Source of the DNA: Alloascoidea hylecoeti
Lineage: Eukaryota
Direction of reading: 5' to 3'
Length of the DNA stretch: 25,418 nucleotides
Assembly (NCBI GenBank): GCA_001600815.1
Contig: BCKZ01000018.1
Coordinates: 186,001-211,418, forward strand
Shown: one piece after another, positions 1,870-25,418 of the stretch
Numbering within the stretch: position 1 is the first letter of the stretch
How the letters are laid out: each line of letters opens with the position of its first letter
The notes under the pieces: generated by a model
What the model saw: the letters and a program-made list of their open reading frames with translations, nothing else
Database searches by the model: none
What the model was told of the DNA's origin: nothing
Program-made: the position numbers and the translations under genes

Positions 1870-3490
1870 ATAAAGGCGAGGTAAAGAGTCAACCGATATA
1901 AATATACCTTAATTAAGCTTTGTACTCTTAATTTCAATCGAGAGGAGGCGTTAGGTCCTTTAAAGACTTCTTTTATAATATGTGTTATTTAATAGAAGCT
2001 ACACTTATTCATAAGTTTAAAACAAAATACAACAGCTTATGTATAAATTTGTTGTATACAACAATTGTTTAGATCGAGATTATATATCAACTTGCTATCA
2101 AGCTCAAATGTCTCTAAGTTTTAGCTTCTATTAAGTCACTATCTAATTCCGATTCTAGTTCTCTTGAAGATAATTAAAACTCCGAATGTTCAGTTTCAAG
2201 TGGTGCTATTTATCTTATTAAGACATTATTACTAATAACAAACATACTGCCGCCTTTTTTATACTCCCCTCAAACCCCACTTTTCCACCTTTTAGTGTGT
2301 TTCAAAAGGCACGATTATGAATTACTAGCTTTCCAATTTCAATCAGTTGCATTATGCTTGATACTAATTATAATCTAATTATAATATAGGGGTATACCCT
2401 CTGCAAACTTTGCTCTTCAATATGAGATAGATTTAACAGTTATATTTTTATATAGTTACCTAGATAAATAAAATAGAGTTAAATTTCAACATCCGATTCA
2501 TACGTATGCCCTCTTTTAGTTGTCCATTCTCCCAAATAGCTATAAAATACATATTAACTCAGATGTGACTTATAAATCTAACTTCAAATGTTAAAAAAAT
2601 GGTGTATTGTGTGCGTAACACTCGATCCGTGGGAAGATTCTTGATATTGATGAAAAAATCAAACCCGAGACGCTTCACTGAACTTATGAGATAAGAATAA
2701 TATGTACTGGTACAGTAAACAATTTTAGGCTCTCGGTTCACAATATCTCCAAAAATTTAAACATCCCTCAATGCAGCGAACATGTTCTTCCCCGTGATTA
2801 AAAATGTAAAACTCTTATATTCGAGGTACCAAAAGTGATGGAGAAATTGATTTACAAGGCACTTAACAGAGTCAAAACATTTGTACTTTTTGACCATGAT
2901 TTTACAAATATCGCAAAACAATCTACTGCACAATTCCCAGATCCATATGCGTAAGATAGTCCGGATTTCAACCCAGTTGAAAAGGTGTGTAGCACGCAAA
3001 ATAAACCAGCCCTTATAAAATTACTCAGAAGCATAGAACCAAATCTATACTTTAATATTGTATCTTGAGTGCCAAAAGTGGTAAATTAACTATTAAAAAT
3101 GGTAGTGGCTATGACTGAGCCACGAATATTGATCCTAACAAACGTCATAATTAGAGAGTAGAGGTCATTTGTATTTTATTCCCTTGTAAAATCCTATAAA
3201 GTATTTTCCTATATACTTTTATGAAATTTGTATGATCTGTGAATGAGTTAATATCTAAGAGATGGGTGAACGAATGATTGATTTAACACTATTTTATCCG
3301 AACAGGATTAAAGAATCGAGCAGACCAAAACTGTTACATTTCAACCACGAATTGTAAACCGGCAACAAATATAAATTATTGAAAATATTATCACTAAAAT
3401 CTAATTTATCTTGTAAATCAGATAATACATGTTTGTTTTGTAAATATTGTTTTGTTGTTGTGTGAATGTTATTCTACGATATAGCGTATT
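1870..3490 (+). mobile_element. Degenerate pogo/Fot1-like DNA transposon, copy A (boundaries approximate)
   Basis: By-eye colinear similarity to 6130-7300, 5680-5868 and the reverse complement of 16335-17000. Shared blocks include ctgttaca...ccacga...aaacc.gcaacaaa and tcactaaaa.cta...gataa. NTTAY at ~2026-2040 resembles the DDE_1 PNTTxxLQPxD motif. Many stops and frameshifts. Confidence 0.65.
2187..2491 (-). mobile_element. Possible solo LTR (305 bp) inserted in pogo copy A
   Basis: Plus-strand termini TGTT...CAACA. Flanks tccgaa (2181-2186) and tccgat (2492-2497). Minus-strand TATAAAA near 2258-2264. Roughly accounts for the extra length of copy A relative to copy C in this interval. Confidence 0.45.
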
Positions 3491-3499
3491 GAGCTCAAA

Positions 3500-4222
3500 G
3501 CTCAACAACTCCATTCTTTATACGTAATTTGATTCATATTCGTCATATGGCAGTTATTTATTAAGATCATCTGAGAAGCTCTTAAATAATAGGAAAAATA
3601 TTCTGGTTTTCCATTCATCTCGAGAAAGTAATGGAATGGAAATGGTTCTACCAAGTACAGGAGCAAATGTATGTCAAGAGGTTCGAGTATAATTGTCAAT
3701 ACTCGACTTGAGCATGAACCCATAATCACTACATCATCGCAATATATTCCACCCAAAATTGAATTACAAATGGTAAATGAAGATATATTTGATCTATATG
3801 AGGAGAAATATTTTTTACCATTTTTATCATCTATCGATGAAGAGAGAATGAACAACTTGAGAGAAGATTACGCTGAGTTACTATATTATTGGAACTTTCC
3901 TTTCAGACGATTAGAGGTACTAAAATTCAATTACTCATCAGTACACGTTCATGCAGACTTACATCCCTTTAATATAAAATCTGAACGAGGAGTAGATTAT
4001 GAGGTTCATTTTGGATGGAGGACCCGAAACAATAAGACAAACAATGTCTGTTCTTTTTGTAATATAGTTGTTAAGAAAAGGGCATTTATCTGTATTAATT
4101 GTGAACATTTAGTGCATGCTACTTGTGCAATTGAATGGTGGAGAAATGATGTTGACGAATGTCCTAGTGGTTGTGGCTGTAATTGTCTTGATCACTTGTA
4201 TGATCAGCTGCAGTTGAACTAA
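3500..4222 (+). pseudogene. MTC5: 3' fragment of MTC5/SEA3 (WDR59, SEA/GATOR2 subunit), including the C-terminal RING-type zinc finger
   Basis: ORF 3671-4222 contains YAELLYYWNFPFRRLEVLKF and CSFC...CINCEHLVHATCAIEWW...ECPSGCGCNC, matching the Mtc5 C-terminus. Coding-like sequence extends upstream to ~3500 through a frameshift. The WD40 and RWD parts of the >1000-aa protein are absent; transposon DNA lies there instead. Confidence 0.85.
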
Positions 4223-4234
4223 TCAAGCTTATAA

Positions 4235-4683
4235 CTATGTATAATTGATCATATCTCAGAATGTTTTTTTCCTCTGTCATACATGTACCGGCGTGAATTG
4301 GTACGCTATATTTGCGACTTAGCATTTTCAATAACTTTCGTGCATTTTGTCACTTTCAGGATCTCACTTTCGCAATTTCCTTTTCCATTTGTAACACTTT
4401 GGTTTTACATGCCGATGAATCGGGGATACAGGGAATATAGTTAGTCCCGCTGCTTTATTTTGCTTAATAGAGAACTGTTACACCTCACACCCGAAGAGCA
4501 AGAGGTTTTCAGTAATTTTACGGATTGTTCAAATTCAGATTTATCTTCACTATTAGCTATAGTCACTTGTTTCTATTGTGTAACAATGACTTCATCAAGA
4601 GGAGATTTCTCCAATGAATCATGAACTCCCAAACCAATGCAGTCATTGAACCATTGGAAATCATCGAACTTCAATCTGTCCAT
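4235..4683 (-). pseudogene. Decayed small gene, unidentified
   Basis: ATG at 4683 gives MDRLKFDDFQWFNDCIGLGVHDSLEKSPLDEVIVTQ*KQVTIANSEDKSEFEQSVKLLK..., and after a frameshift KTKVLQMEKEIAKVRS*K*QNARKLLKMLSRKYSVPIHAG. Coding-like composition with several internal stops. Confidence 0.5.
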
Positions 4684-5027
4684 TCAAGTAAATTATATTT
4701 CAAAAATGTTTTGCTATATCAAAAAGTAACCTTTTTAACTAGTAGTAAAGGAATGCATGTATTACCAATTAAAGAGTAATGATAGATGAGGTATTATTTT
4801 ATGTTCTTTAAGAATAGTATATTCTAAATATGAGTGTGATTAAATGTCATATGATGTTAATGATCACATTATTAATAATCATAAATAAGAAAAAAAAAAC
4901 AAGGTTATACCTGTTCAAACATAAGAATAAAAATAATAAATTGAAAAAGTCATAAATGCTAACCAGTATAGTTCATAAATTTTTTTTTAAAAAAATGGAT
5001 ACACAAAATTTGAGGTGAACTTCTTAG

Positions 5028-5660
5028 TTAAAAGATTGTATACTGAGAATGAGTTGGAAGTGTTGTATTTTCATCACCAAGCATGGATTTTCTTCTGAAT
5101 TGTAATCCATTCCAACTGGCGATGTAAGCCCAGAAGAATCCGAATCAGATCGTAAAGGAGCATCATCAAGCATAAATCTAACTGAATTGGACACTTTGAG
5201 AATGGGGGAAGGTGTCTTATTTATCGAACCAAAGGGAGAAGAAGAGTAAAGGGAGTTAATGGTGAGTCAGGAACTGATTGACCAAATAATTATTTTGACG
5301 AGGCTGTTGAAGAACGGTTCTTTGCTGGCAATTTTGGTTCATAGGTTTGATGATCATTTGAAGGTTCTTCATTATCTGATTTATCAACATGTTCTAATGC
5401 ACAAACAAGTGATTTTCTTCTTTCGGTTGCTCTATTGTTGGTTGAGTCAAAATGTTCTGGGTCTTCTATTACTGCTCGACAATAAAGAAACAATTGATTC
5501 TTTACTATTCTTTTTTATGCCTCCATTTTCAGCAGAATTATCATTTGAAGTTTTGAATGTTTTTACAGGAACTGTTTGAATATTTGTCCATTGGGAATGA
5601 AGAAGACTCATGTCCATCCGAATAATTAGTTTTCACCGAACGATAAGAACTATTTCTTTT
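5028..5660 (-). pseudogene. Decayed 3' end of a Ser/Pro-rich protein gene, unidentified
   Basis: Frameshifted pieces read ...ATERRKSLVCALEHVDKSD..., LFGQSVPDSPLTPF, SPFGSINKTPSPILKVSNSVRFMLDDAPLRSDSDSSGLTSP and LQFRRKSMLGDENTTLPTHSQYTIF*. The 5' part is truncated at transposon copy B. Confidence 0.5.
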
Positions 5661-5679
5661 AAGTCTTTTAGTGCTATCT

Positions 5680-5868
5680 AAAGGATAGTTAGTTTCCCCT
5701 GAATCTCTGTTACAGCTGCCACGACTTACAAAACCAGCAACAAAAATATATTAATATAAATAATTTCACTAAAACCTACATAATCTCATAATTCTGATAA
5801 AATTTATTTAATACTCCCTTTTTGTATTTTCAGTTGGGGAGCTAGATGTTTTCTAAAACTTAGCGCAT
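5680..5868 (+). mobile_element. pogo-like transposon 3' subterminal fragment, copy B
   Basis: ctgttacagctgccacgacttacaaaaccagcaacaaaaatata...tcactaaaacctacataatctcataattctgataa...acttagcgc aligns with 3330-3490 and 7190-7300. Confidence 0.7.
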
Positions 5869-6099
5869 TGAGGTCAATAGATCTATTCATAAAACACACA
5901 GTTTCATTATGCCATGATTAGTTAGAAGCTGTCATATTGGTATCATATGATACCTCTAGGATCAAATAATAATTTAGGTATCATTTTAAATTGAATATCG
6001 TAGTGTAGCCCGAAAATTAAGAACTATAAATTCTGGACGAAAATACAAAATAATTCTTTAATCACTGCAACTCAAAAGTTACATTTTTAAAACAACCAC

Positions 6100-7388
6100 T
6101 AAATCACCACCAGAATTTAAAATGGCACATATAAGGGATTGGATGAATGAGAAAGACCATACAAACAACCTTAGATAGTCAGACATGGAATATAATCAAA
6201 ATCGACTCTTTACGATCACTTCTACAGTAAATTTGCGAAACAAGATACCCACCAAAATTAAAGGCTTCCACCTACTCTTTAAGACTGAGATAACATTTGA
6301 CTACTTTTGAATTTGTGTGAAAATTGTTGTTGCCGCTATTATGAAGCATTTTCGTGTGCGGCTTTATGAGATTATTGTGAACCGCGTGGAAGAACATAAG
6401 GAACGCCAAAACAAAGGATTATTGTTCCGCAAAACCCCATACACTAGTCATTGTGAGATAGTCTAAACTTTCCACTTCTCTTTAACAAACTCAGAAAATT
6501 CGAAGCGTACAGTAAAGTGAGGATCCAAAATATTTTCTTGAATGATGTTCCATTACTTCGAGCTTTTCGCAATATAACATTGCGAATCTCCAATATTTGG
6601 ATCTTTGATAGAACACTGCACAGTTAGTGCGTGCTATAGTCTTCATTTTACCGGCACTTATTGATCGGGAAATGTAAGGGACGGATGCTTCCAGCATTCG
6701 TTCACTAAAGAAGAGGTTGAAACAGATCTACGACGAGAAGCTTGTTAACTTCTGTATAAGTTACATGTTTGTTCCTCTCTCATGATCATTTGAGGGCAGT
6801 GGAGATTACATAAACGACGGACACGATCACGTCTGAACGAACACAAAGATGTACCACCTGGTACGCGTCTGGAAGTTTTATTTTAAATTATATTTTACGA
6901 TAAGTTCCGAATTGAAAGATGGCAAACCAGGTATATTTATCTTAATAGAAGACTTAGATCGAACACGAGAGGATTATTGGACACACTCTAAAAAGTAACC
7001 GTAGAAACCAGCACTAGTATTAACATTTAAGGATAAAGATTGATCATAAATTGAAAACGGCATTCTTTTACCAATCTTGATTCATATATCAAGTACCTAT
7101 ACAACGTCAGATCCATAGAGTCCGGACGGAACATAATTGATATTTTCAACTACTATTTTTTAACCAAAAACTAATATAAATTAAATTTAATACTATCACT
7201 AAAATCTATTTCATCTCGTCATTCTGATAATGGATTTTCAATATGCAATTTTTGTGTTTTCTGTTGTAAAGTGAGATTTTTTTTTTACCGACTTAGCGCT
7301 AATTAATTTTTGTAAATAAAGCTAATTAATTCTTAGACATCTCGCTAATTATTTTCGAAAATAGCGCTATTAGTAGGTGGAGGGACTG
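6100..7388 (+). mobile_element. Degenerate pogo/Fot1-like (DDE_1) transposon, copy C, with right terminal inverted repeat
   Basis: Remnant DDE_1 motifs in the expected order: DWMN (W at 6140), LYDHF (LxDN-like), IVVAAIMKHFRVRL (6323-6365; GIIxxFKxxYR-like). Ends ...gtaggtggagggactg|TA (7388|7389-7390), a CAGT-initiated TIR beside a TA target site. Confidence 0.7.
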
Positions 7389-8200
7389 TATAGCTATCAA
7401 TTTACTTAACGCTAAACGCCAGATATAATGTATAATTATTAATGATAACTGTACGGTCATTAAAGATTTTATATGGTTTCTCGGTTGAATATTTATTAAT
7501 TCCATCTATTTTCGGGAAAACAATTGAATAGTCAACGTTGGTAACCAGGAAAGCATTTTGTTTATGATCATAATTATAATTATATCAAGAATATGAATGA
7601 TTTGGATTGTTCTTTCAAGGTTTAGCTATAGGGCACACAAGTACTAAGTTTATTACCATGACCGGACTGTAAGTTTAACATAAGATAATAATATAAAAGT
7701 ATAGGCTTAGAATTCCGATATTTCAGATTAGGGTCAGAAAACGACTGAGCTAGAAATCTAATTAATTTTGGTTATTTGTATTTTTTTAGATCAATATTTA
7801 AATTTGTTCCTGATCTGCTAGATTCCCATCTAATAATAATAGAGATGGATATCTAGGCCTATAGTTATGTCAACTTGTTTTTGCCTATTCAAGCTCACTC
7901 CTACATAGTTATGAATAATTCTGAAATTCCAGAAATATATCATCATGTTACTTAAATTAGGCCATTTATTAACTAATTTCGTCGAGAATATTACCGTTAT
8001 GACCCGTCCTTATGGTTCTAAACTTGGCCGATAGTTAGTAATCATAATGGCTTAAATTAAGTGGAATTGCTGTATCATACACCACCACCACCAAATAGAG
8101 TAAATAAAATACATAAGACAAGCATTAAAATTTTTACCAACTCAAAAAGAATTACAAAATAATAATAATAATGATTCTAAAAATTCAACTGAAAAAATTT

Positions 8201-8241
8201 AAATTCAAATCAAAATTCAAATCAAAATTCAAATCAAAATC
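8201..8241 (+). repeat. 12-bp minisatellite (aaattcaaatca) x~3.4
   Basis: Directly visible tandem repeat. Confidence 0.85.
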
Positions 8242-9576
8242 ACAAGAAAATTTATCATCTAAAAATTAGAGACCATTATGATGCAAAAGTTTATGCAAAA
8301 GTATTAGAAATTTGTTCTTCGGGAAAATTTATAAAAATTTAGTTAAAATAGGTCAAGGAGCATCGGAAGGAATCAATTGCAAATGATTAGTTTTATCACT
8401 AATAATGTAGTAGTTAGTTATAAGTAATAGTGTTTTATACCATTAGCGCTATAATATACGAAGAATCATCTTCGTTATAACATATGCATCGATATCATTA
8501 ATATTGACGTGCAATTGAGAGTAATTCATTATAATTGTCAACATAAGTTACTTATAGATCGGTTATGATCCTTTCAGCGATAATATATATAATGGGCTTC
8601 GATTTTTCTAAAGAGACAGTATAAGATGAATGTAGATTCCTTATAATTAAATGGAAAATCCACCACCAAAAAATGCAATCCGTAATACTTAACTTCTCAC
8701 CGAAAACACCAATAACATTGAATATAAGTGGGAGAAGGACTATCGATCTTTGAGATTACATAGCTGCAATGTTTATGGGCTTATTCAATTTTCCACTTGT
8801 CTTCCCAATTAACTCTTGTGCGAGAACAGCTGACAACCCTTTAAAATTTAAACATGGTTTAATGGTCTAGAATAAGAGAGATATCTTCTTTTCTGGTAAA
8901 GATAGAGTAAATCGAGGACTTTTTGACTGTTTAGTTTTTGGAATTTTTATAGTTATAAGGAACTATCGCTATGGTCACTTCATTTTCGGAAGAAATAGCT
9001 GCTGGTTCAAATAAATATATCAAAGTTAATGAGCACACAACCAATAGAAGCCAAAATCACTGTATACCTAGATACTAAATCATTATTAACTGGTAATCTA
9101 GAATATAATTATAACCTTGTTAGATCATGTTATAATTATGTCAATAGATTTATTTGGTTATCTTGATGAATTTTTATTAAATTATGAATAATTACAAGCT
9201 TCAAATACATCATTATTAGCAACATCATTATTAGCAACTTCTTTATATGTTAGATTTCTTTCACAAAAAGCATTATTAGAAAAACTTTGTTCAATTAAAA
9301 ATTTAGATATTGATTCTAAAGTTGAAGGGTTTAGATTGTTATTGATTTACTTTAAACTGTACTTATTTTAGAATATTCAAATAAATTCAGAATTTTAGCT
9401 ACTGTCGATGTCACCGATGGATTAAATACATCTGTTGAATATCAGGAATTGGGAATTTATATATATATATATTTAAAATAAATAGATGATTAATAAATAG
9501 ATAATTGCAATTTTAAATGTTACCCGGATATCAAATACATTTTAATTATAACCAATCAACTTCTTTTATCATTAAT

Positions 9577-11651
9577 ATGAATGGTTACCAAGAGCAATTC
9601 TTAGAGCTTGAACGTGAACTCGAGAAACGTATTCAAGACCTGGAAAGTCGTTCGAATTCTAATGAACAGGGACAAATATTTGAAGACATAGTTCTCAAAT
9701 CATATTTTTGGGGACTTACATGAGATGAATAATCTGGATCGGATCAAGATTAGCGCTAATGATGAAGATATCATAGCCAAGTATAGGAACGGCGGAAGTT
9801 TCGCCAATAACATATTATTCAATCTACCATTAGTTGGTTTTTTTGAATTGCCAGGATCTCACAGCAAGGCTACATCAATATCGAGTAGGAAACAAAATAG
9901 AGTTAGCGGAGAATTCAAACAGATGAAATTTTTGCTGACAAAAGAGTTTGAATTCATCGAGGAAATTAAATGGCTAAANNNNNNNNNNNNNNNNNNNNNN
10001 NNNNNNNNNNNNNNNNNNNNNNNNNNNNNNNNNNNNNNNNNNNNNNNCACAGCAAGACTACAACAATATCAAGTAGGAAACAAAATAGAGTTAGCGGAGA
10101 ATTCAAACAGATGAATTTTTTGCTGGCAAAAGAGTTTGAATTCATCGAGGAAATTAAATGGCTAAAAGAACAATTGGATAATGGACGTGGAAGAGGAACT
10201 ATCGGGGGGGAATTACATAGAATATTCCACCAACCTTTCACTATCGTACAAAAAGTTGACGAAACGGCAGTATCAAAATTTATGACAGCAAATCTATTGG
10301 ATCCAGCATGTGGCTTATACAATTCATTTATTGGATCTAGTCGAGCGTTACAGCTGATTAGTCAAGGACCCTCCTACTTATCACATTTCAAACCAGACTA
10401 TACTTATGAGTTTGAAAATCGTTCAATTATTTCAATTGAGTTTAAAAAATATATGTTTGAAAATGTGATATCAGAAATTAATGGTGAATATCAATTCACG
10501 AATCCAATANTTGAGGAAAAGATCAATGAAGTATTGCACCAGTGTCTCCTCATGGACACACCATTCGGCCTGTTGTCCGATATGAGGATCATATTGATGT
10601 TTCAATTCACATATTCAGNAGGTGATCTTCTTCAAGAAAAAAAGCTTAAGTTAAAATTTAAATGCCTAAAATACACAGATCCAGGAGTTTTAAAAACATT
10701 TCTGTTATTTATACACAAAAGCGTTACATATTTTGGAAAGGAACGAAGTGAAATACAATCCGAAATGAAGGAGCTTGGTAATTGTATTAGAAACAAGAAA
10801 TTTATTAGGAACCAGGACAAATTAAGGAAAGATATGAAACAACTATTTGAAGAAGAATGTGTCGATTTTGGAAGGACAAAAACAATTATTATCCTGAAGA
10901 GGTTATAGAACTTGATAAGATCAGTGAAGAAAACAGATTACAATTTTCANAAGAAAAAGGTAGATGGAATTCATTTGTTTTTAAATTTGATAAAGAAAAT
11001 TTAGACAAACATACGACAATAGGACGACAACTTAAAAAGGAAGGAAATGATGATCATCAATATGTGCTGAAGCTAATAGATCCAGCTTTGACATATCAAC
11101 ATGATCACCCAAAAAAGGATATGCCGTTATTTTGTTTTAATAGCTTTATTGCCGAACTTGAGGCGTATAGAACTATTATCGCAAATGATTTACAAGATTA
11201 TATTCCCAAAATTTTTGCCGTCGGGTTTGCAACTCTATGTAAGGACAAAGAACCATACTCATCAGGATTATTTATGATAATTGAACACATCAAAGGATGT
11301 CGTCCCGATTTCAAGAAACCTGAAATACAGAAAAAAGCCTGGGACATCTTGAACAAGCTACGTAAGATTGACATTCATCATGGAGATATTCGAGGTTCGA
11401 ATATGGTATTTAATGGTGATAAGNTAATATTATATGACTTTGGTTTCAGTTATTCCGGTAAATTAAACAATTTGGATCCCTCAAAAAATAAAACGTCGAA
11501 ATCTCCTAGGTCTAAAGATGTTGAAAAATTGAATATAATGATCTCTAGTGTTTCTGGGATCACTAATGTACAGGTGGAACCCATTTTTGATGAACCTATT
11601 TCTGATGAACCCATATTTAAGAGGCTTAGATCAAGAAAACGAGAGTTATAA
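9577..11651 (+). CDS. Coiled-coil + PD-(D/E)xK nuclease + protein kinase fusion (CR-REase/kinase effector or Spok-like), ~628 aa after correcting 2 frameshifts and an assembly overlap; may be a pseudogene
   Basis: Four track ORFs join into one frame by removing one T from T5 (9705-9709), collapsing the duplicated 119 bp around the N gap, and adding one T to T4 (10866-10869). Motifs: heptad-like FLELERELEKRIQDLES; KPDY (10390-10401)...IEFKK (E at 10438)...HQCL...FGLLSD; kinase YVLK, AELEAY, IPKI, MIIEHI, HGDIRGSN (11379), DFG (11436); basic tail KRLRSRKR. Confidence 0.8.
9860..10166 (+). repeat. 119-bp direct duplication (9860-9978 and 10048-10166) flanking a 69-N scaffold gap; probable unmerged contig overlap
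   Basis: The copies abut the gap exactly and differ at 5 positions. Confidence 0.9.
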
Positions 11652-11711
11652 TGTTAGTGATCTATTTATTTAAATTTATAATCCTAACATGAATATTAAT
11701 CAATAAATTTC

Positions 11712-11750
11712 CAATTCCAAATACAATTCCAAATACAATTCCAAATACAA
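11712..11750 (+). repeat. 12-bp minisatellite (caattccaaata) x3
   Basis: Directly visible tandem repeat between two convergent stop codons. Confidence 0.85.
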
Positions 11751-11793
11751 ATTCAATCTCCAATTTATAAATTATAAATTCCTTATAATTAAT

Positions 11794-12200
11794 TTATAAT
11801 CTTGGACTATTTTGCCTCTTAATAACACCTTTATTGTCATCATCAATAACATTCACTCCAACAAGAGGAATCAGATTCCAAATGCTACTAACATATTGAA
11901 TATCGACATCTAATTCTTGTGTAATAAATTTTTCGCCATCCAATTCTATTACTTTTGTTACACCTGCTAGACGAGCACCATGTATGTCATTTCTCCAGTC
12001 AATGCTGAATCACTTGGAACAGGTGTTTTAGTTAATAGAGATGAAAGTGTCATTGTGATTGCTGGACCAGCACCAGCACTAGCACCAGCACCAGAACCAG
12101 GTCTATCTTTTGGATCAGCACTTCCCATGTGTGCAAGACCATTAACAAGTCCCATTCTATGATACCTATAACTTCATAGAAAAGTCTGATGTTTCTTTAT
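11794..12200 (-). pseudogene. Internally deleted 3' fragment of peroxisomal Lon protease (LONP2/Pln type)
   Basis: Reads GLVNGLA...PKDRPGSGAG...ITMTLSSLLTKTPVPSDSALTGEMT, then after a frameshift HGARLAGVTKVI...ELDVDIQYVSSIWNLI...SPRL*. These match Lon protease-domain motifs (GxVNGLA, PKDGPSAG, AMTGE, GAxxAGV) and end in a PTS1-like tripeptide. Confidence 0.8.
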
Positions 12201-16506: not shown

Positions 16507-17069
16507 GTAAATACTATTTTTAATAATTTATATTCGTTGCTGGTTTTGCAATTCCTGATTGAAATGTAACAATTTTGGGTGACGCAGTTTGTTACCCAGC
16601 AATTACTGACAGTATACAAATTTGGGTGAACATTCTAACAATTTTAACAATTACTACCGTTTATTTTAACATTCTGTTCATTATAATGACCATGATCTCC
16701 ACCAGTAGGTTCCGTAGTTTGGCACACTGTTGAATTACCACTATCGTCATTCATCTCCATAATTTCATATGGATTATAAGGGCTTTCTTCCAGTTTGGTC
16801 TCTATATTTTTTATCATGAAACTCCTTCATCAGGTGCGATGTCTTTAGTCCGAATGTATTGATGTCGCGGTGGTCATTTGAAGTGACTTCTACTAGTATT
16901 TTGAGATATTCCAAAGCCATTCTCGTAAAACTTATATTTAGATCAGATCAGACATAGATTTCAATTCACTTTGAATATTATGCTGGTTGAACACTTCTTC
17001 AGTTTCGCGACATATTTCGTTATGCATATTCTCAAACCCTAGAATGTCTGCTCTTATTGTTCTTGCCAG

Positions 17070-17753
17070 TTAAGATAATTCCTGTTCAGCTGACACCAGA
17101 GTGGGTATTCTAGTGTTTAACTGTCGTTTTCGCGTAGATCGTGTATTAGGAGTTTGACTACTTAAAACGGTAACAATTTCTTTATCTTTTTCATTTTCAA
17201 TTGATACCTGATTATCTACAGCAGGTAAGTATGTATCTCTTTTCCCAGTTTGAATGATTAATCTTTCACATTTATTTGTATTATCATAGACGGAATCGAT
17301 TCCTGCTCTTTCTTTGAACTTCTTAAACCAAGTGGTGGCTTGATCACGAGTCATTCTGATATTAGTACGTGTATTTTTCAATTGTAAAACGTGCTCAATG
17401 AACTCATCCCGAGTTAAACGATTGTCTTTTGAAATCCGCTGATGAATAAATTTAATCAAGCCTTGTTCTTGTGCGCTTGAAAAATGAGCAATAGACTTTG
17501 ACAATGCTCCTTTGATATTACTAGTTTCTCTCTTCATCTGTGTCATAAAGGTTGAAGTGGGCAACTTCTGTTGCTCAGCGAATGCTCGACGAGAGATACA
17601 TGATGTTTTTGTTCTCTTTGCCTCCTTTTCGAGTTCCCGGTACTTTTTGATACCTTCTAGAATGAGTTGGTGCCTAACTTGGCTCTTTCTCATGCCATTG
17701 GGTGGACATTGATATTCAGCTCTAACATTGTTCCTATAGGTCCGCTTAGCCAT
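17070..17753 (-). CDS. Transposase-derived DNA-binding protein (psq-like HTH + CENP-B/Tc5 HTH), no catalytic DDE domain
   Basis: 227-aa ORF with ISRRAFAEQQKLPTSTF, FSSAQEQGLIKFI, LTRDEFIEHVLQL and TTWFKKFKER, typical of pogo/Fot1 N-termini. The frame continues for 43 codons past the TAA at 17070, suggesting a premature stop. Confidence 0.75.
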   Translation of the reverse strand: MAKRTYRNNVRAEYQCPPNGMRKSQVRHQLILEGIKKYRELEKEAKRTKTSCISRRAFAEQQKLPTSTFMTQMKRETSNIKGALSKSIAHFSSAQEQGLIKFIHQRISKDNRLTRDEFIEHVLQLKNTRTNIRMTRDQATTWFKKFKERAGIDSVYDNTNKCERLIIQTGKRDTYLPAVDNQVSIENEKDKEIVTVLSSQTPNTRSTRKRQLNTRIPTLVSAEQELS

Positions 17754-17817
17754 TACTTAACTTATGTGGTTGTGGTTAGTGTTTGTATAAGTTGAAGATA
17801 AGGGGTGGATGTGAGTA

Positions 17818-18032
17818 TGTGCCAATCTGGAACAAGCCAACCTGGAATGGACCTGTATCACCGGTAAGGTATGTTCGAGTTGTCTTTTATTCATTACTGG
17901 TAACTAGGTACCTTAGAGTAGCATAGTCATTACTGTGACACCCGGGTAAAACAGGTAGAGTAAATTGGTCTACGGGTGCACTGGTTTCTGTCCCAGCAGC
18001 TGTTCCAGGTTGGCTTGCTCTAGATTGGCACA
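17818..18032. mobile_element. TA-flanked MITE (215 bp, ~30-bp TIRs)
   Basis: Inverted repeat 17815-17847 / 18003-18035 (GTATGTGCCAATCTRGARCAAGCCAACCTGGAA, 2 mismatches in 33). TA at 17816-17817 and 18033-18034. Confidence 0.75.
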
Positions 18033-18840
18033 TACAGTCAGTTAGCTTTCTAATTTATCCTACAGTTGCAAATTGCAATTGGTGGGTGAGCTCATGGATT
18101 AAATTTTGTAGGATAGATGAGGCTGTATCTTGATACAATTGCGATGGCAGTGAAACAATTACAGTACTGTTTGCGTTAATATCTACCACTTGTTGTCCTT
18201 TATATTCGGCCAAATTTTAAATGAATAATTTGGGCATATGTTATAGTATTCAACCACTCATCACAAATAAGTTCGGTGATATTGGATTAAACTTTTGGCC
18301 ACCTTTATGCGCAACAGAACATGGCCAGCATCGATCTTTTATTAATAAATTCAGTTAAAGTCAAATTGCAGGTTTTAAAAACATTTTAAGTTAGATAAAC
18401 TTTGTAATACTAATTAGTTAATCATGATAAATAACAGAATAGTAATACTGAAGTCAATTGCAAAAGAATAAAAAATATTAAAAAATCGATAAGGCCCTTA
18501 TATATCATACCTCTTCAAACTTTAACAATTCATCATCATAATTATAGGTCTCTTCTATGATACATCATTATCATTATCTATGTGATGATTATTTTCATAA
18601 TCTTGTAGAAAACTTTCTCTAGGCTGGGCACTTGATGACCATTGCATTGCAGTCAGTCGGATCCGGGAAAAGTAAAACAAGACGAGACAATGTGGGCGAG
18701 AATTCCCTTAACTCCTGATGTGCAGATTACAAGAGCTTTAACAGTATGTCAACCATGCATAATTGAACCCTTCCGCGGTTATCGGAAATCTCCAATAAAT
18801 TGTATTAATGTCGTTAATATAAAGAATATAGGCCTATTGC

Positions 18841-25060: not shown

Positions 25061-25418
25061 AAAAATCCCCAAATTTAACCGCATTTACCTAAACACACCG
25101 AACAAAATGATATCGACATTGTTAACACGAACATATACCCTCCTTGAATTCATCTGCGACTGAAATTATAAATCTACTGAAATTAAATTAACCAACAATT
25201 ACCTAAACAGTTTCATTTGATCGTTAGATGATATCGATATTGATAATGATACATATATAGAACATACCCCTTATTTATTCTTGTTAAATTTCGAGAACTT
25301 CTTCAACGAAACTTTAGGAAATCTATTGAAATTAAATTAACCAACAATTACCTAGACAGTTTCATTTGATCGTTAGATGATATCGATATTGATAATGATA
25401 CATATATAGAACATACCC
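25061..25418 (+). repeat. 149-bp-period tandem repeat running off the window end, preceded by a shorter diverged unit
   Basis: 25171-25269 matches 25320-25418 with 2 substitutions. 25061-25170 shares ttacctaaaca, atgatatcga.attg and cata..ccc. Confidence 0.9.

Follow-up and report, generated by a model that had tools for sequence, protein, structure and literature searches.

Among the 25,418 bases of the stretch of DNA analysed here, referred to as the window, four fragmentary open reading frames (ORFs) on the plus strand between positions 9577 and 11651 raise the question of whether they are parts of one gene and, if so, what kind of protein that gene encodes. The first-pass annotation had read the four ORFs, which are indeed present as it described them, as one hidden protein of ~628 amino acids with an N-terminal heptad segment, a restriction endonuclease (REase)-type active site, a minimal kinase and a basic tail, and had proposed a Spok-like toxin-antidote or meiotic-drive element. 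We find that the fragments are a single protein-coding gene of about 629 codons. Its product is predicted to join a nuclease-like domain to a kinase that would restrain it, a tentative reading in which, as a whole, we place somewhat less than even confidence; that the gene could be a single-gene poison/antidote element is the weakest step of this reading.

The evidence for one gene comes from contigs of other sequencing runs. For the stretch, 12 public runs are listed, with no RNA run that contains it among them; 7 of the 12 contain part of it, with a maximum of 0.49 of the sampled words; the contigs of four runs were compared with the window, two of them from wood-decay metagenomes (X1 and X5) and two from an organism coded A (X2 and X4). 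At the first of two frame breaks (Table 1) one T is missing in the whole depth of X1 (130.5 of 130.5) and in about half of that of X2 (306.2 of 613.4) and X4 (90.9 of 197.1); this site is not covered in X5. The loss of this T joins, by frame arithmetic, the frame of 9577 to the frame of 9725. An intron was considered as the cause of the break behind 9723 and rejected because the 1-base difference in the other runs already joins the frames. At the second frame break the four bases ATGA stand behind 10855 in one contig of each run and at full depth (161.7 of 161.7 in X1, 207.1 of 207.1 in X2, 92.5 of 92.5 in X4 and 4.16 of 4.16 in X5), which, again by frame arithmetic, joins the frame of 10048-10854 to that of 10857-11651. 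Since contigs of the other runs are without both frame breaks, the gene may be intact there, and the window may contain a mis-assembled copy or else an allele or paralogue that is broken.

The gene contains every non-ACGT letter of the window, namely a run of 69 N and the single Ns at 10510, 10619, 10950 and 11424. The N run is bordered by a direct duplication of 119 nt whose two copies are 96% identical. A contig of X5 that begins at 10048 has a loose end that resembles the sequence upstream of 9860, and the duplication is therefore regarded as an artefact of the assembly. The read-through product amounts to 629 amino acids (with an X at the break), close to the length claimed before, and contains the motifs that had been named (KPDY...IEFKK, HQCLL, FGLLSD, VLKLID, AELEAY, HHGDIRGSN, YDFGFS and the tail KRLRSRKREL). 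The earlier description of the gene as hidden and fragmentary holds for the window, in which the fragments are real, but is largely a matter of assembly, as the contigs of the other runs show. For the start, the ATG at 9577 is favoured over a possible alternative, an in-frame ATG at 9517, because the X1 contig carries several insertions and deletions (indels) at 9537-9545. From its N-terminus the product consists of a heptad segment, ~170 amino acids without an assigned fold, a nuclease-like domain of ~150-200 amino acids, a linker of ~100 amino acids, a minimal kinase and a basic tail. The heptad segment is present as claimed; residues 4-31 came out on top of a crude, uncalibrated score of a/d occupancy within the protein.

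A homologue supports the same conclusion. When 1.84 billion representative proteins were searched with the middle piece (HMMER, E <= 0.001), a single match came up, P0001 (E 1.7e-7), which is an intact protein of 482 amino acids from a cluster with two members. The two pieces have their counterparts in P0001 in unchanged order, the middle piece in residues 10-226 (E 5e-15) and the kinase piece in residues 238-456 (E 1e-16), and this colinear alignment of an intact protein with both halves supports a single gene. Four CTG codons align to P0001 residues, which are L, I, T and I, a weak fit to the reading of CTG as leucine. In a word-based homologue search the kinase piece, compared with proteins of longer length, gave 0 of 940 candidates at E <= 0.001 and P0001 retrieved only itself; a 3-row alignment as query returned P0001 and seven generic kinases (E 0.014-0.49), and in two metagenome scans 0 of 283 and 0 of 93 pattern matches were confirmed. 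The family is very sparse in public data. A single match in 1.84 billion representatives speaks for the earlier interpretation in this respect; a conserved, syntenic orthologue across yeasts, the reverse of such sparseness, had been named by the first-pass annotation as an outcome that would contradict its proposal.

The C-terminal domain is, as library matches and conservation establish, a minimal protein kinase of the Bud32-like kind. Both lines bear out the earlier claim of a minimal kinase with its Lys, helix-C Glu, HGDxxxxN and DFG intact, since Lys437, Glu465, D542, N547 and D559-F-G are all conserved between the window protein and P0001. Against the Protein Data Bank (PDB) the kinase piece matched Bud32 and Kae1-Bud32 chains (phmmer, E 1.1e-3 to 3.9e-3; 8unk at E 1.1e-3); it also matched the Bud32 models of NCBIfam (E 1.5e-6, far under the family cut-offs) and the PADLOC kinase models PD-T4-6 (E 4.9e-5). 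P0001 matched Pfam Pkinase with 31.7 bits (E 1.3e-7), which is precisely the gathering score, and a profile of the two proteins retrieved 380 distinct PDB sequences at E up to 1, with protein kinases making up all 60 of the 60 shown. The chain stops about 70 residues past the DFG motif and has no C-lobe beyond it, hence the designation as minimal and Bud32-like. Bud32/PRPK of the KEOPS complex gives the best sequence match of the domain, around the catalytic loop and DFG, and both kinases are without an activation segment and most of the C-lobe; however, the match spans only about 60 residues and Bud32 has no counterpart of the 400-residue N-terminal extension of this gene. An orthologue of Bud32 was rejected, the best score being 28.1 bits versus an equivalog cut-off of 174 in NCBIfam (NF011462). 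FunK1 (Pfam PF17667, Pkinase_fungal) was not matched at E up to 1 by any of the four pieces or by P0001. The basic C-terminal tail, which resembles a nuclear localisation signal (NLS), was found as described, and P0001 also ends in a basic tail.

For the middle domain, the residues D211, E225, K227 and Q259 had been picked as a candidate PD-(D/E)xK active site before any homologue was known, and all four are invariant in P0001 at an overall identity of 25%. The claim of an REase-type active site stands in so far as D...ExK...Q is present and invariant in the homologue, but the domain was matched by no sequence library. A PD-(D/E)xK nuclease is therefore a plausible candidate for this domain, for and against which we find the scales about level. 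AlphaFold2 models of P0001 (3 alignment rows) and of the window piece 10231-10854 (2 alignment rows) reached a mean predicted local distance difference test score (pLDDT) of 36.4 and 37.5, respectively. In either model, although confidence is low, D and ExK sit on a hairpin of two strands; helices come next, the second of which holds Q, and strands after them. Hairpin, helices and strands in this order are the elements of the PD-(D/E)xK core. Foldseek gave 0 matches against the PDB at E <= 0.001 from these models, which are too poor to bear on the fold, so that the fold searches are uninformative in this respect. The loop directly before D211 varies in length: X2 carries an in-frame insertion of 18 nt behind 10387, just ahead of the codon of the candidate catalytic Asp, a loose end of X5 reads the same, and P0001 has 9 extra residues at this spot.

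In the order of its parts the gene appears REase-kinase-like and analogous to the SPOK proteins and to Crinkler effectors. Spok1-4 of Podospora anserina are single-gene spore killers. In the excerpts of PMC6660238, SPOK3 is described with a coiled coil within its first 40 amino acids and then a domain of unknown function, a PD-(D/E)XK motif at 219-240, a QxxxY motif at 294-298, and, upstream of the kinase, a cysteine cluster (C-x3-C-x13-C-x5-H-x7-H) that is needed for resistance; the SPOK kinases are called short and nearer to atypical kinases. The exchange K240A abolishes killing, and that of the catalytic Asp, D667A, makes SPOK3 toxic (Vogan et al. 2019, excerpts of PMC6660238), and SPOK1 with the equivalent kinase mutation causes DNA damage in E. 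coli and S. cerevisiae, according to a passage of PMC9972908.

The window protein shares with SPOK the order of parts from the N-terminus, where its heptad-like segment is a candidate coiled coil, through a domain of unassigned function to a kinase, the candidate motif almost equally far from the N-terminus (D211...K227), a later conserved Q, a short kinase of ~160 amino acids nearer to atypical (ELK-like) kinases, with its catalytic Asp found in HHGD(542)IRGSN and followed by D(559)FG, and a basic signal of the nuclear type. Its family is, like the Spok homologues that excerpts of PMC4022471 describe as 'often present as pseudogenes', patchy, variable and sometimes frame-broken. It differs from SPOK in a linker that is about 125 amino acids shorter, in the absence of the Tyr of QxxxY and in its host, which is budding-yeast-like, whereas Spok homologues are described from filamentous ascomycetes in the parts of PMC4022471 and PMC12930445 that treat them. 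Among the titles listed by the literature searches none dealt with a Spok homologue of budding yeasts, and these searches brought up no report of a Spok-like driver in Saccharomycotina. The caveat of the first-pass annotation that the SPOK cysteine cluster is not evident was confirmed, and because this defining cluster is absent the gene is not filed as a member of SPOK. The comparison with SPOK was made by published descriptions.

The only homology lead to SPOK came from a language-model feature search in the ESM Atlas, in which residues 1-235 of P0001 matched Ascomycota clusters at 0.90-0.91. Five of the 30 matches fell into clusters in which 76% of the members carry PF27653 (SPOK2_N); the strongest of these scored 0.90 and shared 184 of 256 features. 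By the figures given for the Atlas, 4-10% of shuffled queries reach 0.9 by chance, and for protein parts the search is uncalibrated. This possible link of P0001 to SPOK is a weak lead, and kinship with SPOK seems to us possible but somewhat doubtful.

The other runs also revealed that the gene is variable. Over a stretch of 2.6 kb around it, X1, X2 and X4 have 129, 151 and 70 short contigs, respectively, and the low-coverage run X5, whose gaps in cover are uninformative, has 8; the contigs are 88-100% identical to the window, in classes from under 90% to over 99%; the flanks of the gene are single contigs. In parts of the gene the summed depth is 2-4 times that of the flanks; in X2, for example, it amounts to about 220-260 in the flanks, 750-960 at 10170-10343 and 207 over 10779-11126, depth summed over contigs being no copy number. 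When the window is compared with the runs, 19 of the 28 coding differences with the best support are nonsynonymous and 9 synonymous; another 77 differences, coding or not, lie outside the 28 that were classified. A further 1-base deletion at 10228 was found in some contigs of X1 (29.1 of 159.2) and X2 (176.2 of 358.4). Around the gene the other runs have the same flanks, with contigs that span 9300-9736 and 11588-11900. The gene is rare and fast-changing, with variants among the runs. Rarity, the diversity of the contigs, depth, Ns, substitutions, indels and basic tails are traits typical of genes in conflict and are suggestive of such a role.

Directly past the stop codon, at 11690-11780, lies a region of short-unit repeats (CCAAATACAATT-like) in which the runs differ; loose ends are numerous, and one contig of X4 has 24 gaps.

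By the logic proposed for SPOK and for the REase-kinase C-termini of Crinklers, nuclear DNA would be the target of a nuclease in the middle domain, and the kinase of the same polypeptide would restrain or counteract this nuclease. The gene could then serve as a poison/antidote element by itself, which is the weakest step, toxin-antidote action and meiotic drive being purely inferred. Selfish behaviour of the gene is, in our judgement, improbable. The same must be said of a Spok-type poison/antidote spore-killer family in the budding-yeast lineage, in which a nuclear PD-(D/E)xK killer would be neutralised by a minimal kinase without the cysteine cluster.

Several observations weigh against a nuclease-kinase gene with poison/antidote function. 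The middle domain, searched as a single sequence and as a 2-sequence profile, gave nothing in Pfam at E up to 10 (the Pfam copy used may lack PF27653), only chance rows among the PDB sequences (Csy1 at E 0.11 and a decarboxylase at E 0.18), 0 families in PADLOC and NCBIfam, and one uncharacterised family in PHROGs at E 0.21. The Tyr of QxxxY is missing, the window protein having QCLLM and P0001 QCLNL, and D-x(n)-E-x-K is a common pattern in proteins rich in Lys and Glu. Regular expressions found no Cx3C, Cx2C or cysteine cluster of the SPOK type in the read-through protein or in P0001. In the Atlas, the X-free piece of the window itself reached only 0.89 with 143-147 shared features and a recognition value below the mark of the tool, and gave no SPOK row. 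The gene is single-copy within the window, with no second copy found there by tblastn and blastn, and more copies elsewhere are only hinted at because depth sums give no copy number. Finally, the copy in the window has its two frame breaks, and the half of the X2 and X4 depth that keeps the T at 9705 means that it may truly be a pseudogene.

The alternative that survives best is an atypical kinase that is an orphan restricted to its lineage. Regulation or scaffolding, not nuclease action, would be the task of the first two thirds of the chain, D...ExK...Q would belong to another fold as a conserved structural element, and the function might be ordinary signalling, with no toxin involved. It would account for statistical support that is limited to the kinase domain, for seven sequence searches and two fold searches (the latter from poor models) that detected no nuclease family or fold, and for the missing Tyr of QxxxY. 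However, the four residues named beforehand are all invariant at 25% identity, the predicted hairpin, helices and strands, albeit from low-confidence models, fit a PD-(D/E)xK core, the Atlas leads from P0001 to clusters that carry SPOK2_N, and a housekeeping kinase would not be so rare. On balance we regard an orphan kinase as unlikely, though a serious contender.

A second alternative keeps the REase-kinase architecture and drops the drive: the gene would be a conflict gene that serves allorecognition, defence against viruses or plasmids or the signalling of damage, akin to Crinkler-type or FunK1-like proteins and not to SPOK. Headers of Crinklers (CR) carry the motifs LxLFLAK and HVLVxxP; neither LFLAK nor HVLV was found by regular expressions on the protein, and the gene thus differs from Crinklers in having no N-terminal header detectable in this way, and also in having no signal for secretion or host delivery. 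The excerpts of PMC5289972 describe the Crinkler N-terminus as a ubiquitin-like (Ubl) header domain and, citing Zhang et al. 2016, state that about one sixth of the CR C-termini join an REase domain to a kinase and that the toxicity is ascribed to the REase; the REase is held to be the toxic part, the kinase the regulator and the nucleus the site of action. A likeness to such C-termini, as in CRN8 of Phytophthora infestans, would lie in an REase-superfamily domain, here a candidate, followed by a protein kinase. The frequency of this combination among Crinklers and the absence of the SPOK cysteine cluster would suit a gene that is no driver, and so would the Atlas, where the window piece listed clusters with Pkinase_fungal (38% of the members) and DUF6826 at 0.83-0.84. 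Yet these Atlas scores lie under 0.9 and are leads only, Pkinase_fungal of Pfam was not matched, and the Crinkler motifs are missing. A conflict gene of this sort is distinctly unlikely, more so than an orphan kinase.

The weakest alternative, that the copy in the strain of the window is a decaying pseudogene of a once-active family without present function, is very improbable: it draws on the two frame breaks, on the absence of the frame-joining deletion from about half of the X2 and X4 depth at 9705, on the extra deletion at 10228, on the near-neutral ratio of 9 synonymous to 19 nonsynonymous substitutions and on the pseudogenes among the Spok homologues in the excerpts of PMC4022471, but the catalytic residues are all intact, contigs of the other runs are without both frame breaks, and sequencing error is at least as likely because at this very place the assembly is plainly poor, with Ns and a duplicated gap, and one of the breaks lies in a T homopolymer.

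The gene, its parts and the flaws of the assembly are listed in Table 1.

Table 1 Positions of the ORFs, the gene segments, the frame breaks and the conserved residues in the window
Feature	Position	Strand	Details
ORF fragments	9517/9577-9723; 9725-10114; 9970-10908; 10857-11651	+	
First 43 codons	9577..9705	+	ATG at 9577; heptad-like segment at residues about 4-31 (FLELERELEKRIQDLES)
First frame break	9705..9709	+	five-T run in the window, four T elsewhere; ...KSY/FGDLHEMNNLD... (slash marks the break)
Domain 1, N-terminal region	9707..9859	+	51 codons; no Pfam family at E up to 1
Assembly artefact	9860..10166		duplicate 9860-9978, 69-N gap 9979-10047, duplicate 10048-10166; the true gene has the segment once
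End of domain 1, nuclease-like domain and linker	10048..10854	+	269 codons; Ns at 10510 and 10619
Candidate PD-(D/E)xK residues	10396-10398; 10438-10440; 10444-10446; 10540-10542	+	D211; E225; K227; Q259
Second frame break	10855..10856	+	window without 4 bases (ATGA) found in all four other runs
Kinase piece	10857..11651	+	264 codons and stop; Ns at 10950 and 11424
Degenerate glycine loop	within 10857..11651	+	GRWNS, in the kinase piece
Lys437	11070-11072	+	kinase Lys
Glu465	11154-11156	+	helix-C Glu
Catalytic loop HHGDIRGSN	11385-11387; 11400-11402	+	D542; N547
DFG motif	11436-11438	+	D559
Basic tail	11619-11642	+	KRLRSRKR, NLS-like

The surroundings of the gene were inspected as well. The window has a G+C content of about 23-39%, and its long uninterrupted ORFs include those of an 808-residue WD40 protein, an MMtag protein and a glycine-zipper protein; composition and long ORFs fit a low-GC, intron-poor yeast. 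Of the claim that the gene sits amid transposon debris and orphaned gene fragments, the debris was not confirmed: a scan of 30 flanking ORFs brought up no transposase and no reverse transcriptase domain. An ORF with only a RING domain looks like an orphaned fragment. No tRNA genes or Rfam families were found in the window, and no repeats flanking the gene itself. The core of the middle sporulation element, CRCAAAW, occurs 23 times in the window compared to 19.9 expected, once at 9262-9268, about 310 nt upstream of the gene; neither the count nor this position is evidence of sporulation regulation.

The RING ORF, at 3671-4222 on the plus strand, encodes 183 amino acids with a C-terminal zf-RING_16 (PF17120, E 4.2e-20) as its sole recognisable part, and upstream of it there is no plus-strand ORF of at least 70 amino acids. 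RING domains of this type usually close much longer proteins, and the ORF looks like an orphaned gene end. From about 4300 to 9500 the window is gene-poor, with only four stop-to-stop frames of at least 70 amino acids in ~5 kb, none with a Pfam family, which is unusual in a compact yeast genome. A repeat of ~115 nt without coding signal is scattered in the gene-poor stretch; its four diverged copies (60-89% alike) lie at 3339-3453, 5714-5828 and 7144-7258 on the plus strand and, inverted, at 16511-16578, and they may be what is left of a small mobile element or of solo long terminal repeats. On the other side of the gene, the minus strand encodes a basic protein of 227 amino acids without a Pfam family (17070-17753), and adjoining this ORF is a pair of 33-nt inverted repeats (17815-17847 and 18003-18035), 94% complementary and 155 nt apart. 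At the end of the window are two direct repeats of 100 nt (25170-25269 and 25319-25418), 98% alike, with starts 149 nt apart.

What the gene means for the biology of such elements depends on the middle domain. Should it be no nuclease, all that is left is an atypical kinase, an orphan at a place where the assembly is bad. The Spok genes are the clearest case of a single protein that both kills and protects. If the proposed reading is true, a yeast gene with the Spok layout but no cysteine cluster would be a small system for the REase-kinase pair that is amenable to tetrad analysis. It would extend the range of Spok-type selfish genes and would be, within the scope of the literature search, the first Spok-like driver known in Saccharomycotina.

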